From the NCBI GenBank assembly GCA_044356455.1, contig JBIKWF010000047.1, positions 1 to 30,033 of the forward strand: DNA of 30,033 nucleotides. The letters are read 5' to 3'. The DNA is from Bdellovibrionota bacterium (GTDB lineage Bacteria; Bdellovibrionota_C; UBA2361; JBGSMV01). Below, in pieces: positions 13,423-19,502 of this stretch. Every line of letters begins with the position of its first letter. Position 1 is the first letter of the stretch. The translations under genes and the position numbers were made by a program. A model generated the notes under the pieces. The model did no database searches. It saw only the letters and a list, made by a program, of their open reading frames with translations, and was not told where the DNA came from.

Positions 13423-14928
13423 TTACGCCATTAATAGGGGCAGCGGCAAATCGGCATCTTCTACATGGTAAGCGGGTCCAAGCATTTGAGTCGTCGGTTG
13501 ATATCCGAACCCAAACTCGTCTAGTCCGGCTCCCATGGTGCCCTTGATTGCGCCGTAACCGCCGTATTGGAACTCTCCCACACGTGGGCGCTCGTAGTCC
13601 TGTGGCTCGAGCCCCATCGCCTGAAGCACGCTCACGAGAAATCGATTATAGAGGAACCCCGGTCGCATGACCGCGCCAGTTCCGCCGCTGCCCCTTTCAA
13701 AGGAGGAACTAAGGTTGCGGTAGTCAATATAGTTACCGGTGGTGATGCGCCCATTAGCTGAACCAAAGGTTACTACCACTTGATCGACAATCCCGTGCGG
13801 ATAGCGGTTTTCAGCTACCCACATGATAAGCGAATTCTCGAGCATGGTTTTGCCATTACTTTCAGTAAAAGCCGCCATCTTAGAGACGAGATCGAAAAGA
13901 ATTTGCTGGACGAAGAAGCGATTGCGGTCAGCGATAAAGCTCTGTCCTGCTACCTGGTGCCACAGATGCGCGGTGCCATGCCAGTCAGCAAGATAGTCAA
14001 GTACGGTGCCCATGATCGTGGCAACTCTTGTGATGCCACAACGCATCGCTGCAATTATGACATCATTAAAGAGTTGGTGAATTTGCACTAAGGTAGGAAT
14101 GGTCGGGGCCGAGTTAAAGGCGAGAGATGGCGGAGTTGAGGGAGGCTCGCAGATGATTGCACTTCCAAGGCGATTCTGTAGGTCCTGTAGGTGCGCAATG
14201 TGGCCCTCAAAAATGTTTTTGTCCTGGGCGCTAAGTTTCGGATTATTGCGGACGTTTGCGTAATCGGAGAAGACCGCATCCACTAACGTGCGTTCCTCGT
14301 TGTATCTTGTGCCGCTGCCGCCCTGAAAAAGCGTGTTGAATACTGCGCGGGGATTGAAGACATGTGGCACTGCGGTCACGGGACCAGAAAGCGCTCCCGG
14401 TGTTGCATAGGCAACAGAGGAGCTTCCTTCCGCGTCAGGATGCACGACAATCGATCGTACTATGCCTTGAGCGTTCGAATAGATTTTCGGGGAGTAAGCC
14501 AAGATTTGGTCAATAGTGGCCTGCTCGGGGATACCGGGAGCCACAATCGGGTGAGAGAGATTTCCGCACACCGCCGTGGTGCTGTGCTCAATGGAGTGCG
14601 ACACGTCGAGCCCGCGGAGCACATTCATACGGCCGATATAAGGATTAAGAAAAGACCCCAGCACTGGGGAGATATTGGGCGTGAGGGCGCGGTGCCGTAT
14701 GACATGCCCAGGGTAGACCTCCACTGAGGTTGCACCAGGTTGTTCACCGATTATTGACGCGTCCAACATTCCGCCATGCGGAGTCCAGCACATAATAAAA
14801 CGAGGCTGGATGGCCATGGACTGGGCCAGTGCCTCCTTGGGCAGGAGTGATTCGAGAAATGGCAGAGCAAGGAGGCTTCCTCCCATTCCCGTAAGGAACT
14901 GCCTGCGTGTAAGAGCGTGGTATTTCAT
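13423..14928 (-). CDS. DUF1552 family protein with Tat signal
   Basis: N-terminal LTRRQFL.G....LALPFLESL, PHG, TIDQ..A, NPRAVF..LF, TRVAT, GKTMLENS, FGSANG; 4-bp ATGA overlap with upstream gene. Confidence 0.88.
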   Translation of the reverse strand: MKYHALTRRQFLTGMGGSLLALPFLESLLPKEALAQSMAIQPRFIMCWTPHGGMLDASIIGEQPGATSVEVYPGHVIRHRALTPNISPVLGSFLNPYIGRMNVLRGLDVSHSIEHSTTAVCGNLSHPIVAPGIPEQATIDQILAYSPKIYSNAQGIVRSIVVHPDAEGSSSVAYATPGALSGPVTAVPHVFNPRAVFNTLFQGGSGTRYNEERTLVDAVFSDYANVRNNPKLSAQDKNIFEGHIAHLQDLQNRLGSAIICEPPSTPPSLAFNSAPTIPTLVQIHQLFNDVIIAAMRCGITRVATIMGTVLDYLADWHGTAHLWHQVAGQSFIADRNRFFVQQILFDLVSKMAAFTESNGKTMLENSLIMWVAENRYPHGIVDQVVVTFGSANGRITTGNYIDYRNLSSSFERGSGGTGAVMRPGFLYNRFLVSVLQAMGLEPQDYERPRVGEFQYGGYGAIKGTMGAGLDEFGFGYQPTTQMLGPAYHVEDADLPLPLLMA

Positions 14929-17210
14929 TCAGATTTCCTCAACCGGAATGTCGGCGTATTTGCGACTTTCTTTAACAGCTGTTTTATAGACCCATTTGGC
15001 TTCGTTAATTCTTGTCGTAAGGCCTCTAGCGTACAGCTGTCCTGTTCCAGGTTTTCATGGCGACGGAAGCTGTAGCGAAAATAACGCCTACTGAGACACA
15101 TTTCAGCTTTGCCGCTTTCGACAATGCGATTGTTGAGCTCGGTCATGGTGGAGCTTGTGCGGTAATCACCCTCTACAATCGCAGATTCAACTTTGCTATT
15201 AATCGGATGATTTCCCAGCAGCGCTCCGCTCTGATCGTAGACAAGCTCAGTGCTGCGAAACCTGCCGAGTGAGTCAAAAACCTCCAAGCCAAAGCCAAGA
15301 GAATTTATCTTGCGGTGGCACGTCATGCAGTTTGATGGACTTGTGATAATCGAGAAGCGTTCTCGCGTCGTTCTGGATGCGTCAAATGCGGGGAGTTTGA
15401 CCATCTGCATGGTGGCCGGGTCGGGATCTGGCAGCTCATCGCATAAGATTTCTCTTCGTACTCTCGCACCGCGTTTGAGAGGATTGGTGTAGTACTCCCC
15501 TGCCACCAAACTTGCAGCTCTGGTAAGGGGCCCCTTTCTATTTTGGTTCTGAATAACCACGGGCGGAGATTGCGGTATCCATGCGGGGGCTTCGTAGATA
15601 GCCGCAAGCGTCTGAGTCCTCGCAAAGGAGAGATTGCTCTGGAACACGTCCTTCCAAGTGCCGTCCGTTTGCCAAGTGTAGTAGTCGAAGAGATCGAGCA
15701 GCTCTTGCCTCATGTCTTCACGAAGCGCTTGGCCCCCCGCGGGAATATTCAGACCTTCTGCAAAAGCTTGGAACGCCGGTGAGTTCACATTGTTGATCCC
15801 CGGAAGCCGCTCTAATCGAAACCACTGCGCAAAGAAATCGCTGCTCATTTCCTTCGTGCGATGCTCGGAAGCATCTGCGAACACGCGGTCGAGTTGCTGC
15901 TGAAATCCAGTCTCAGTGAGAATTGACCCCGTTCGTGCTGACTCAAATAATTCCGAGTCAGGGAAAGTTCCCCAGAACTGATAGGAGAGGCGAGAAGCGA
16001 GCTCATATGCGCTTAAGCGCAGGACGCCGTCTTGTCCTGACTCGGGTATTCCGTGAATTTCGAGGTGGTGCAGAAAATGAGGGCTCATCAGCAAGCGAAC
16101 GAGAAGGTCTCGAAGCGCGCGATCCGACTCGCGGCTCTGAAAGAATGAGCTTAGCTCAGAAACCTCGTCATCGCTTAAGGGGCGGCGGTACATCTTGAGC
16201 CCAATTGCTCGGACCGCAGAGTCAAAGCAAAGTAGCCCCTCGAACGATGAGCTAGGAATGCAGGACGAGCCTAAAAAGGCCTGTGCTCGTTCTGGGGTAG
16301 CGGTGACTTCTCCGGCAAGGGCTTTTGCTACTTCGAACCACGCGTCAATATGTTGCTGAGAAATGCGCGCGTCGAGCTGCTCAAAAATTTGTTCATCAAG
16401 AAAACTGCCGCGCGGAGCGTCTGGTGGGACGGAGCTTACGATTGGTTCAAGCTCTGTCCAAATGGCGAGCTGGTCGCTTGCGCTGAGGGGACGCAGAAGG
16501 TCGTACACTGAGTTGGTATATTGCTTTCTTGAAAGTCGCTTGAGGGGAGATGGGCTTAGAGCGAGGGGTTCTTCACACGAGAAACTGCGAGGCTCCTCTG
16601 CATTTTCGTTGGGAAGGGCGCGAATCCATTTTGCGATTGCGAGAACTTCCTTCACTGGGATGGGCGGCATGCCCTTAGGCATTGACGCCGGAAGATATCC
16701 CTCTGGGTTTCCCGCGAGATGGGAGTAAATGGGGGAAAGCTCAAGACTTCCTGGGATCACGCGTCCGTTTTGGATATACCACGATTCGGAATTTTGCCAG
16801 GAGCCTTGTGTCACATGGCACGTCATGCAGCGGCGTTGCAGGATAGGTTTAACAGAGGAGAAGGGGACGCGGGGGAGCTGCGGAGGGAGTTTAAGTGTTT
16901 CTTCGCACTTTATCGCCTCTTGTTTTAACTTGACGAAGAACTTTCTTTGCTTCTTCTTTGTCGCCGAAGCGCTAAACGGAAGACGCACGTCGGCAAGCCT
17001 TCGAATCTCGCTGCTTGAGAAGCGCTTCTTCTTCATCCCCGGAGGCGCCGTTCGGAGTGTGATCATGGCGAGCTTCTTACCTTCGCTTGAGCGACCTTCA
17101 CTGCAGGTAAGCCTCGTTCTTGATTGAGCGGTCGCGAGGGAGGTGAAAAGAAAGGTCGCGCAAAGAGCTGCGCTTAATTGAAATAACAACTTGATTTTTG
17201 CGATTCGCAT
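14925..17210 (-). CDS. DUF1592/DUF1588/DUF1595/DUF1587 protein with planctomycete-type cytochrome c domain
   Basis: Signal peptide from ATG 17210 (ORF extends to 17285); CMTCH...MP..I..WI; LKRLSRKQY.NSV.DL; YRRPL; LMSPHF; YELASRLSY..W..PD; second CMTCH..IN.LGFGLE.FD..G..R. Confidence 0.9.
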   Translation of the reverse strand: MRIAKIKLLFQLSAALCATFLFTSLATAQSRTRLTCSEGRSSEGKKLAMITLRTAPPGMKKKRFSSSEIRRLADVRLPFSASATKKKQRKFFVKLKQEAIKCEETLKLPPQLPRVPFSSVKPILQRRCMTCHVTQGSWQNSESWYIQNGRVIPGSLELSPIYSHLAGNPEGYLPASMPKGMPPIPVKEVLAIAKWIRALPNENAEEPRSFSCEEPLALSPSPLKRLSRKQYTNSVYDLLRPLSASDQLAIWTELEPIVSSVPPDAPRGSFLDEQIFEQLDARISQQHIDAWFEVAKALAGEVTATPERAQAFLGSSCIPSSSFEGLLCFDSAVRAIGLKMYRRPLSDDEVSELSSFFQSRESDRALRDLLVRLLMSPHFLHHLEIHGIPESGQDGVLRLSAYELASRLSYQFWGTFPDSELFESARTGSILTETGFQQQLDRVFADASEHRTKEMSSDFFAQWFRLERLPGINNVNSPAFQAFAEGLNIPAGGQALREDMRQELLDLFDYYTWQTDGTWKDVFQSNLSFARTQTLAAIYEAPAWIPQSPPVVIQNQNRKGPLTRAASLVAGEYYTNPLKRGARVRREILCDELPDPDPATMQMVKLPAFDASRTTRERFSIITSPSNCMTCHRKINSLGFGLEVFDSLGRFRSTELVYDQSGALLGNHPINSKVESAIVEGDYRTSSTMTELNNRIVESGKAEMCLSRRYFRYSFRRHENLEQDSCTLEALRQELTKPNGSIKQLLKKVANTPTFRLRKSE

Positions 17211-17654
17211 CACTTCCAATCCACCCGTGCGAGGTGGCCCCCAAAAGAGTGAAAGCATGAAGTGTGCCACTCCCCTAGGAAGCAAGTTGGGGTCATTGTT
17301 ACCCTTGAAAATCGAAACAGTTCCAAATGCTTAGAGAGGAACTGGCGCTGGCCGTTTCTTGATGCGGCGAAAAGGCAGGGAGCTAAGAGCCTTGCGCTAT
17401 GAAACAAGTGATACGCAAGGAAAGAGACCCTTGAAACAAGTAGTTTTTCCTGGGCCCACTCCCTCTGGACTGGTGCGCTGCATGGATTTCCTAGTTCAAA
17501 GGCCTAGAAATCACCGAGAAGACATTGATTTCTGTCCCCTCCATGGATTTATAGCGCGCAAACATCCCTAAACGTCTCTCTTATGTCGTCCCTAGAAGGC
17601 GCAGAGTCAGATTTTCTCAAGGTTTGAGGCATATGGCCAAGGCGGCCCTCTAAC

Positions 17655-19502
17655 GTGACGCTTTCGATTCGATCGAATAGCAACGCACTCAAAGCTGGGC
17701 GCGCCCTCGCAGATAGCGAGCGAGCGGTGTCGCGCGTATTCGAGCGCCTATCTTCGGGGCAGCGCATCAATCGTGCGAGCGATGACTCCGCTGGGCTCTC
17801 CGTAGCAAGTACTCTTTCGGCGCGTTCGCGTGTGTACGGCCAGGGAGTAAGAAATCTAAACGACGGCATCAGCCTGCTCAACATTGCTGACGGAACTCTT
17901 GGGGTAGTTTCATCTACCGTAGATAGGCTCAAAGAACTTGCGGAGCAGGCAGCCAATGGGACCTACTCAACTACGCAGCGTGTTGCACTTCAGAGAGAGG
18001 CGGACCAGCTTGTGGGGGAGTTCAACCGCCAGCTAGGGGCTACGTCGTTTAATGATCGTGCGCTCCTTAATGGCCTATTCGGGAACCTCGCGATTCAAGC
18101 AGGTAGTGGTACGGGTGCGGTGGTTCAATCAAATGTCGGAGGACTGCTCCAGCGCTCCATCGGCGACAGGACATTTACGGACGGAACTCGTATCGACACT
18201 GGAAGCACCAGCATTTCTGATATGGAATCGGCGGATGTCAACGGAGATGGGCTTGATGACCTTGTGGTGCTTGATAATGGGACCACGCTCTCAGTGTATC
18301 TGCAGCAAAGCGACGGAACTTTCGGGACGGCAACTTCGACTGCCACAAACGGTACTATGCTTGCTCTCGGAGATTTCGACGGTGATGGGCGAATCGACTT
18401 TGCGGTGGGAAAGAGTACTGGCGCGCTTACCATTCATACCGGGAATGGGTCTGGGGGGGCTTCCTCGGGTTCAAGTCTAACAGTCGGAACTGCGATTACG
18501 GACCTGCAGGTGGCAGATCTGAATGGCGACGGGCGAAGCGACCTTGGAGCTCTCACAAGTTCGTCCGTGGTGGGATTTTACAATTCAGGTTCGGCGCTTT
18601 CGGCTCCGGCTACAACGCTCCTGTCTTACTCGGGAGGCGGGACCCTCTCGGCGTTTAAGCTTGCGGATGTTACGGGAGACGGGGCGGCAGATATTATCAC
18701 TGGCAGCTCTACGGGCGTTATTTCCTCTTACGCGCGGGGTACTACCGGTGCCTATTCATTAGGAGGGGCCCATACTCGTGCCGGTGGCTTGGAGATTTCC
18801 GCGATTCAGGTCGGCGACCTGAATCGTGACGGGAATGTCGACATAGTCGCCGTCGGGCAAAATCATTTGACCTCACTTGCGGGGAACGGGGCGGGCGGAG
18901 TTTCCTTTATCGCAACGGGAGGTAATAAGGGGAAAGAGCTTCACCTCGCCGATGTAAATGGAGACGGATTACTTGATGCTGTGGGGAGTTTCGATGGGAG
19001 TATAGTTATTTCTTTTGGAAACCTAGACGGAACTTTTACTGCATCGTCGGAAGCTCCGTCGACAGCGTATGAGGGCGCCGTTTCGCGAGTAGTGATTGGG
19101 GATTATAATCGCGACGGTATTCTCGATGTTATTTCATCTTCCGGCACAAAGATCGGCTTTCAATATGGAAATAGCACCACCACTACCACCGCTCAGTACG
19201 TTACCCTAACCACTCAGTCAGGGGCGCAAAGTGCACTCTCCACGCTCGAGTCGCTTGCGCAGCGCATTGCGAATGAGCGAGGACGAATTGGCGCAATGCA
19301 AAGCAGATTGGAGGTAGCTGCAAATGTCCTACAGTCGGCGCGAGATAATTTTATAGCAGCGGCGAGCCGAATTACTGATGCTGATGTAGGGCTTGAAACA
19401 TCTGAGCTCGTGCGTCAGCAGATTCTTCAGAAATCTGGTGCGGCTGTGCTTGCGCAAGCGAATCAAGAGCCTTCGCTGGTGCTCAAATTGCTCGCAGCCT
19501 AG
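17655..19502 (+). CDS. fliC: Flagellin with seven FG-GAP/VCBS repeats in the hypervariable region
   Basis: Flagellin N: ERLSSGQRINRASDDSAGL, RN.NDGISL, RLKELA.QAANG; C: RGRIGAMQSRL, SRITDADV..E, QILQ....VLAQAN; seven D-x-(N/D/T)-x-DG-x-x-D motifs. Confidence 0.93.
   Translation: MTLSIRSNSNALKAGRALADSERAVSRVFERLSSGQRINRASDDSAGLSVASTLSARSRVYGQGVRNLNDGISLLNIADGTLGVVSSTVDRLKELAEQAANGTYSTTQRVALQREADQLVGEFNRQLGATSFNDRALLNGLFGNLAIQAGSGTGAVVQSNVGGLLQRSIGDRTFTDGTRIDTGSTSISDMESADVNGDGLDDLVVLDNGTTLSVYLQQSDGTFGTATSTATNGTMLALGDFDGDGRIDFAVGKSTGALTIHTGNGSGGASSGSSLTVGTAITDLQVADLNGDGRSDLGALTSSSVVGFYNSGSALSAPATTLLSYSGGGTLSAFKLADVTGDGAADIITGSSTGVISSYARGTTGAYSLGGAHTRAGGLEISAIQVGDLNRDGNVDIVAVGQNHLTSLAGNGAGGVSFIATGGNKGKELHLADVNGDGLLDAVGSFDGSIVISFGNLDGTFTASSEAPSTAYEGAVSRVVIGDYNRDGILDVISSSGTKIGFQYGNSTTTTTAQYVTLTTQSGAQSALSTLESLAQRIANERGRIGAMQSRLEVAANVLQSARDNFIAAASRITDADVGLETSELVRQQILQKSGAAVLAQANQEPSLVLKLLAA

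Follow-up and report, generated by a model that had tools for sequence, protein, structure and literature searches.

A flagellin with a predicted VCBS-type beta-propeller as its outer domain, and its divergent paralogues in uncultured Bdellovibrionota

The window, that is, the whole stretch of 30,033 nucleotides analysed here, is one entire contig from an uncultured lake bacterium of the Bdellovibrionota. On its forward strand lies an uninterrupted open reading frame (17655-19502) of 615 codons, starting with GTG, the product of which is identical to record P0125. The gene has the following features:

17655..19502, forward strand: flagellin gene with a VCBS-type beta-propeller outer domain (615 aa, GTG start; assigned by Pfam and predicted fold)
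17655..18152, forward strand: N-terminal D0/D1 helical region (aa 1-166; Pfam Flagellin_N at aa 5-140, and model)
18153..19187, forward strand: predicted seven-bladed beta-propeller (aa 167-511; AlphaFold2 model, aligned range 172-511)
18234..18260, forward strand: calcium-type motif 1, Asp-rich, in blade loop A-B (aa 194-202)
18372..18398, forward strand: calcium-type motif 2 (aa 240-248)
18516..18542, forward strand: calcium-type motif 3 (aa 288-296)
18666..18692, forward strand: calcium-type motif 4 (aa 338-346)
18816..18842, forward strand: calcium-type motif 5 (aa 388-396)
18951..18977, forward strand: calcium-type motif 6 (aa 433-441)
19101..19127, forward strand: calcium-type motif 7 (aa 483-491)
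19215..19499, forward strand: C-terminal D1/D0 helix (aa 521-615; Pfam Flagellin_C at aa 530-613, and model)

By its PF00669 and PF00700 regions, the 615-aa protein is a bacterial flagellin. Flagellin_N (PF00669) matches aa 5-140 (E 5e-30, 104.8 bits against a cut-off of 26.6) and Flagellin_C (PF00700) matches aa 530-613 (E 4e-15, 56.2 bits against a cut-off of 23). Together with the helices in the model, these matches bear out the intact flagellin termini noticed in an earlier, sequence-only reading of this DNA. In addition, six stretches of the protein match FG-GAP_3 (PF13517) above the cut-off (E 5e-43). TcdB_toxin_midN matched below its cut-off, probably through the shared repeat. The core-to-propeller and propeller-to-core junctions are both bridged by contigs of an independent run (X2) with no differing letters, so the fusion of flagellin and propeller is not a misassembly. 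No other flagellar gene was found by Pfam among the 24 open reading frames scanned in the window, as had been noticed before. Divergent from the flagellin gene, on the reverse strand (13423-17285), are a gene for a DUF1592/DUF1588 (PSD) protein with two CxxCH-like motifs and then one for a DUF1552 (HXXSHH) protein. Scans for sigma-70 promoters and terminators gave scores near shuffle level, and the 23 upstream regions scanned for a sigma-28-like promoter scored 8-11, within the background of 500 random windows.

The seven Asp motifs are present exactly as the sequence-only reading had listed them, 45-50 aa apart, with the first Asp codons one codon beyond its figures. When the insert was shuffled 10,000 times, 9,903 shuffles had no motif, 97 had one and none had more, against the seven observed. 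The AlphaFold2 model, built from a 119-row alignment, has a mean pLDDT of 90.6 and a pTM of 0.83; its ends are helical, and 28 strands lie in the middle, from aa 167 to aa 510. Searched with Foldseek, it matches flagellar filaments best and then seven-bladed propellers. In the VIA structural ranking, integrin-alpha heads come first (Z 31.2, rmsd 2.5 over 315 residues), and aldos-2-ulose dehydratase and other propellers trail them by 1-2 Z. The model and the integrin-alpha matches thus support the seven-bladed fold originally suggested for the insert. Sequence matches in the PDB include a secreted esterase (8w20) and PVL-type lectins (PVL E 8e-7). According to the strand order, the N-terminal strand at aa 167-181 closes the last blade. 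Paired with aa 499-510, this strand would connect the propeller to D1 as a two-strand stalk and, since both D1 links depart at the C-D loop position, the stalk would share its face with the Asp loops, a geometry deduced from DSSP strand order and motifs, without coordinates.

Counts of blade motifs in 833 blades from 119 proteins place this propeller among the known families. The Asp motif is almost invariant, and all seven copies are retained in 91 of the 119 proteins. Other motifs are rare: the aromatic-Gly pair ahead of strand A is found in 59 blades, Pro after strand B in 46, G[AS]P in 6, GW in loop D-A in 6, and Trp-Asp ending strand C in 2. With the Asp motif near-invariant while GW, G[AS]P, aromatic-Gly and WD are rare, the domain is, by motif, VCBS-type. 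The VCBS supercluster is defined by an Asp-rich A-B loop (Pereira and Lupas 2021, PMC8023676); the propeller studied here has seven four-stranded blades with a DxDxDG-like A-B loop, and Ca2+ binding is predicted from this motif. As in the VCBS superfamily, which includes PVL lectin and integrin-alpha (PMC8023676), there are seven blades, an Asp-rich loop A-B and a conserved Gly in loop C-D; unlike in that superfamily, there is no GW, Trp or FG-GAP/Cage motif, and the domain is inserted in a flagellin rather than placed after a signal peptide.

Three other assignments were rejected on the same counts. First, an FG-GAP/Cage propeller carries an FG pair and a GAP/Pro cage motif in each blade (PMC3192720), and both are rare here; the FG-GAP, integrin-type identity initially proposed for the insert is therefore not supported as stated. 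Second, a WD40 repeat has Trp-Asp at the end of strand C, a pair present in just two of the blades. Third, GW in loop D-A makes up the pocket for sugar in PVL and tachylectin (Pereira and Lupas 2021, PMC8023676), and the 615-aa flagellin has no Trp at all. Since this known motif is missing, neither a PVL/tachylectin-type propeller nor the label of lectin, also used in the sequence-only reading, is supported.

The gene had also been put forward as a candidate for an undescribed system. The architecture is, however, already catalogued, and what is added here is the repertoire. Fields et al. 2024 (PMC11532411) list a flagellin outer-domain cluster #55, 'WD40-repeats', with PF13517 in 16 of its 40 members and A0A521GVE6 as representative model. 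Flagellin_N, PF13517 and Flagellin_C are combined there in 545-670 aa, mostly in metagenome-assembled genomes; the 615-aa flagellin likewise has flagellin ends around a PF13517 propeller, within about 550-700 aa. The cluster also includes propeller flagellins without PF13517, from Paenibacillus, Desulfovibrio and Chlamydiales. It is treated in one clause and one origin remark under the WD40 label, with no experiment, and the parts of PMC11532411 examined hold no calcium loops, paralogue expansion or lineage for it, to which Supplementary Figs 4-5 may add. A literature search, with most subscription papers outside its scope, returned no paper devoted to the propeller-flagellin family or its expansion.

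The source genome (G000; 93% complete, 1.2% contamination) has a near-complete flagellar gene set with stator, switch, export, rod, ring, hook, junction and cap proteins: MotA/B, FliL-R, FlhA/B/F/G, FlgA, FlgC-L, FlgN, FliE, FliF, FliH, FliI and FliK, together with two FlgE, two FliD, FliS and FliW. Its FliA-like gene is interrupted by a contig end. Export and assembly genes are thus present in the genome, as the sequence-only reading requires. Flagellin genes with both ends number 22 in this genome, next to two half genes at contig ends. Of the 22, seven have a full propeller (one of them cut C-terminally by its contig), one has a partial propeller, ten have an insert of 180-210 aa and four are short. 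The earlier suggestion that the 615-aa flagellin may be one of several with inserted domains is therefore borne out, the set being large and its inserts different. The ten medium inserts (G000 C100, C113, C122, C169, C186, C202, C205, C26, C52 and C74; L030-L032, L153-L159) have no Pfam match. The insert gave a moderate model (pLDDT 72) that comes closest to FlgE chains of the hook (best E 6.6e-4, TM 0.40); this possible hook-like resemblance is a lead only. Several medium-insert flagellins carry one Asp-rich loop, and the type is also present in G075, G012 and G013.

Codon usage was scored against 19 ribosomal-protein genes. Two short flagellins reach the 98th and 100th percentiles, the other two the 56th and 5th; the seven propeller flagellins lie at the 40th-74th, with the gene studied here at the 56th. 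This suggests that short flagellins may be major subunits and propeller flagellins minor ones. About 8 kb from a short flagellin, a 690-aa protein (L013:1377-3446, reverse strand; G000:C13) with a beta-rich middle and a helical end has a faint Flagellin_N match below the cut-off (E 2e-4) and is possibly a highly diverged display flagellin. A tandem pair of FliD cap genes lies at L013:14262-17484 (forward strand), and at least two FliD matches are common across the phylum.

The homologue search gave 2,842 matches, ordinary flagellins and propellers included. The best 120 of them, the own record aside, have the same architecture at 36-44% identity, and the same Pfam set (flagellin ends and PF13517) recurs in 119 of the best 120, again with the own record excluded, P0072 being without PF01839. 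The source names are mostly Bdellovibrionota, and the Atlas clusters agree with this. Using a profile built from close matches, a propeller flagellin was found at E 1e-100 or better in 57 of 124 phylum genomes, all of one class and incomplete drafts, and many of the 57 have at least ten. FliD is present in 54 of these 57 genomes and in 107 of the 124; two of the three FliD-less carriers have FlgK, and 53 of the 107 FliD-positive genomes have no propeller-flagellin match at the threshold. Flagellin_C matches number 5 to 36 per genome in 29 of 31 genomes, with 36, FlgL included, in G013. Many flagellin paralogues per genome are also known from the magnetotactic bacteria MO-1 (14 genes) and MC-1 (15), given as the highest known numbers in a 2020 review (PMC7175107). 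In contrast to these, there are 22 in G000 and the 36 matches in G013, with several different outer domains.

The propeller-flagellin genes are scattered, away from flagellar operons, and no conserved neighbourhood was found among the 73 neighbours scanned of 86 listed. The adjacent GT2/GT4 and DUF1592/DUF1552 genes do not recur as context; by Pfam, a glycosyltransferase is found in 1 of the 73, in addition to the GT2 of the window. In some relatives, three or four copies follow one another head to tail, with overlaps or gaps of a few bases (L120, L123), which makes co-transcription seem likelier than exclusive switching. Propeller flagellins that are split or interrupted, with a frame change or an internal stop (L119:5622-7497, L141:3564-5486, L150:1493-3364, L118:9131-10495), are consistent with gene turnover or assembly error. 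Flagellins with about three Asp-loop blades (L027:5787-7139, forward strand; L124:3625-5001; L166; L167), too few for a closed seven-bladed propeller, might form oligomers or be deletion products. Among longer forms, 1 of 24 matches has a propeller; in the flagellin P0129 (1,287 aa), repeated modules rich in beta structure, about 670 residues altogether, stand within the VCBS propeller.

In trees of the D0/D1 core (midpoint-rooted quick searches), all insert-bearing flagellins of the lineage fall on one side of a branch with 97-98 support, which sets them apart from other phyla and from the short type; a single short-type row with a very long branch grouped with the insert-bearing ones in the first tree and was omitted from the second, which also left out C216 and most outgroup rows. 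Monophyly of the propeller flagellins alone was not retained: their 97-support branch had two exceptions in the first tree and was split in the second. Nested among VCBS flagellins, in the 98-support group, are an accessory flagellin with a PD40/TolB-like propeller (L037:371-2413, forward strand) and a flagellin with a ConA-like Laminin_G_3 outer domain (L170:241-1821, reverse strand; G020:C152; E 5e-14). Since they are nested in this way, outer domains appear to have been swapped, which implies, as far as the core trees go, an accessory-flagellin group with VCBS, PD40, ConA-like and hook-like outer domains. A further flagellin with a PD40/TolB-like propeller is split ahead of its C-terminal part (L119:7856-9520, forward strand).

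Within genomes, cores may be 80-95% identical, with propellers at 29-44%, the same as between genomes. In paralogue pairs of G013, for example, the N-core reaches 95% identity and the propeller 31-39%. In G001, of the same genus as the source genome, the best propeller identity among the copies compared is only 31-37%, and therefore no clear orthologue is seen there. At fourfold sites, the closest G013 paralogues are 0.36-0.37 identical in the core versus 0.29 in the propeller, near saturation, which suggests old duplicates rather than a fast-switching cassette; recent conversion of the whole core was mostly rejected. One G013 pair is 95-100% identical across the first 40 codons. As judged from these sites, the similarity of the cores is mainly the result of long purifying selection, local conversion having played some part at the 5' end. 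In one allele pair, 31 of 327 propeller sites differ versus 4 of 274 core sites (p 1.4e-5), and in contigs of another run, only 1 of 4 differences in the propeller and 1 of 10 in the C-core change a residue.

The two faces of the propeller differ. In 119 aligned proteins, the entropy is 3.21 bits in the B-C/D-A loops versus 1.44 in the A-B/C-D loops. The length of the A-B loop is nearly constant (sd 0.1 or less) and that of the B-C and D-A segments is not (sd 1.3-2.0), length changes being almost confined to the B-C/D-A loops. In this alignment, then, the face with the calcium loops is invariant, and the one across from it is hypervariable. No conserved ligand-binding residue was found on the variable face of the 119 proteins; the sole position reaching 40% is a Gly. 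The variable loops are rich in Ser, Thr and Gly, with 0.5% Trp, a composition that would suit a surface that is inert or glycosylated no less than one that binds. Under relaxed constraint, too, surface loops should change faster, without positive selection.

We give a probability of roughly 45% to the possibility that the protein, an intact flagellin in which a predicted VCBS-type propeller replaces the usual outer domain, is a minor filament subunit displaying a variable binding face. The propeller flagellin would pass the flagellar channel unfolded, like other flagellins, and co-polymerise with the short major flagellins in the filament. External Ca2+ would then bind the seven Asp loops and stiffen the stalk-bearing face. 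The face formed by the B-C and D-A loops would point away from the stalk and, since it differs between paralogues, their targets would differ as well, and a cell holding several of them could carry binders for particles, surfaces or prey cells. What speaks for this model is the fold as predicted, the flagellar genes of the genome, the set of paralogues and the one-sided pattern of conservation. The other domains of the accessory group, some of a recognised binding type such as the ConA-like Laminin_G_3, and the FliD genes in 54 of the 57 carriers also count for it, and the average codon usage of the propeller genes is as expected of minor subunits. Co-assembly has a precedent in MO-1, all 14 flagellins of which are reported in its filaments (PMC7175107). 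Flagellinolysin is likewise a foreign folded domain displayed from the variable region of a flagellin, with the difference that its insert is an enzyme with activity shown in filaments (PMC5595980), whereas the insert of the 615-aa flagellin has no evident catalytic residue; VCBS, FG-GAP and propeller are not mentioned in the text or the portion of the supplement of PMC5595980 searched.

Several observations count against display. No conserved pocket is seen, the face is rich in Ser, Thr and Gly, GW is absent, and the faster change of the loops may reflect relaxed constraint. The flagella of Bdellovibrio are membrane-sheathed, and a sheath, if present, would hide the propeller. Moreover, in G075 (single contig, 82% complete), which has 11 flagellins, three with a propeller and four short ordinary ones, plus FlhA, no rod, hook, FlgK, FlgL or FliD match was detected. 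These gaps are probably missing sequence, the simpler reading given the four short flagellins.

It is somewhat unlikely, but well worth considering, that the propellers are instead a variable protective or hydrodynamic coat, which would thicken the filament and mask its core from flagellum-binding phages or grazers, the variable face serving to avoid binding. Variable loops of this composition without a conserved pocket, and the many divergent versions per genome, would fit such a coat, and outer domains have been discussed as modifiers of motility and surface (Fields et al. 2024, PMC11532411). However, the average codon adaptation suggests too little protein to cover a filament, a ConA-like lectin-fold domain is present in the same accessory group, and the glycosyltransferase neighbour is not conserved.

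An improbable alternative places the calcium-loop propellers inside a sheathed filament, as spacers or anchors between core and sheath. Related Bdellovibrionota have thick flagella (PMC13200544), and a title cited in PMC7175107 concerns a sheath whose assembly depends on calcium, in a magnetotactic bacterium that has many flagellins. Yet a structural partner should conserve the outward face, which is the most variable one; the 53 of 107 FliD-positive genomes without a match at the threshold also speak against it, and sheathing in the lineage of the 615-aa flagellin is putative. Quite improbable, too, is that the flagellin ends are an export tag only, the protein being released as a soluble binder and not polymerised. 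The scattered genes without shared neighbours, the grouping of accessory cores apart from short flagellins and the hook, rod and cap genes undetected in G075 would agree with release, but both D0/D1 ends are complete and conserved, including a C-terminal helix unnecessary for export alone, and missing sequence accounts more simply for G075. Least probable is a tolerated passenger, a single old propeller insertion, since multiplied, that has drifted with no role under selection: patchy distribution (57/124 genomes), the split copies L119, L141 and L150 and loop change that may need no positive selection would allow it, but all seven blades keep a nearly invariant Asp loop in proteins whose propellers are about 32% identical, most copies examined are intact, and maintaining up to 18 or more genes of 600 residues is costly.

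The display model has a wider form, tentative but possible, in which the flagellum is a display platform: an accessory clade with interchangeable outer domains, expanded to 20-35 genes per genome, would provide an antibody-like panel recognising prey or surfaces. If so, the proposed display flagellum would be the flagellar counterpart of the MAT fibre repertoire of Bdellovibrio, a paralogue family with diverse binding parts and broad prey recognition (PMC10769870). The analogy is one of organisation, MAT fibres being trimeric and unrelated to flagellin, with glycan binding shown for one member (PMC10769870). At the genome level, the interest lies in flagellin counts above 14-15 and in one accessory group with swapped outer domains. 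If the display reading is true, the flagella of this widespread uncultured lineage would be organelles of recognition that have diversified, and propeller flagellins would be a natural self-assembling scaffold with a 345-residue domain.

Finally, the source genome carries an FlhA/SctV-family gene within a Tad pilus locus (L019:9609-18758, reverse strand; G000:C184) and a separate type III-like locus with SctV-like, SctJ-like and FliN-like genes and a TPR chaperone (L020:9426-14238, reverse strand; G000:C7). Extra FlhA/SctV-family genes are also present in the seven relatives searched; such loci are possible contact-dependent killing machinery.
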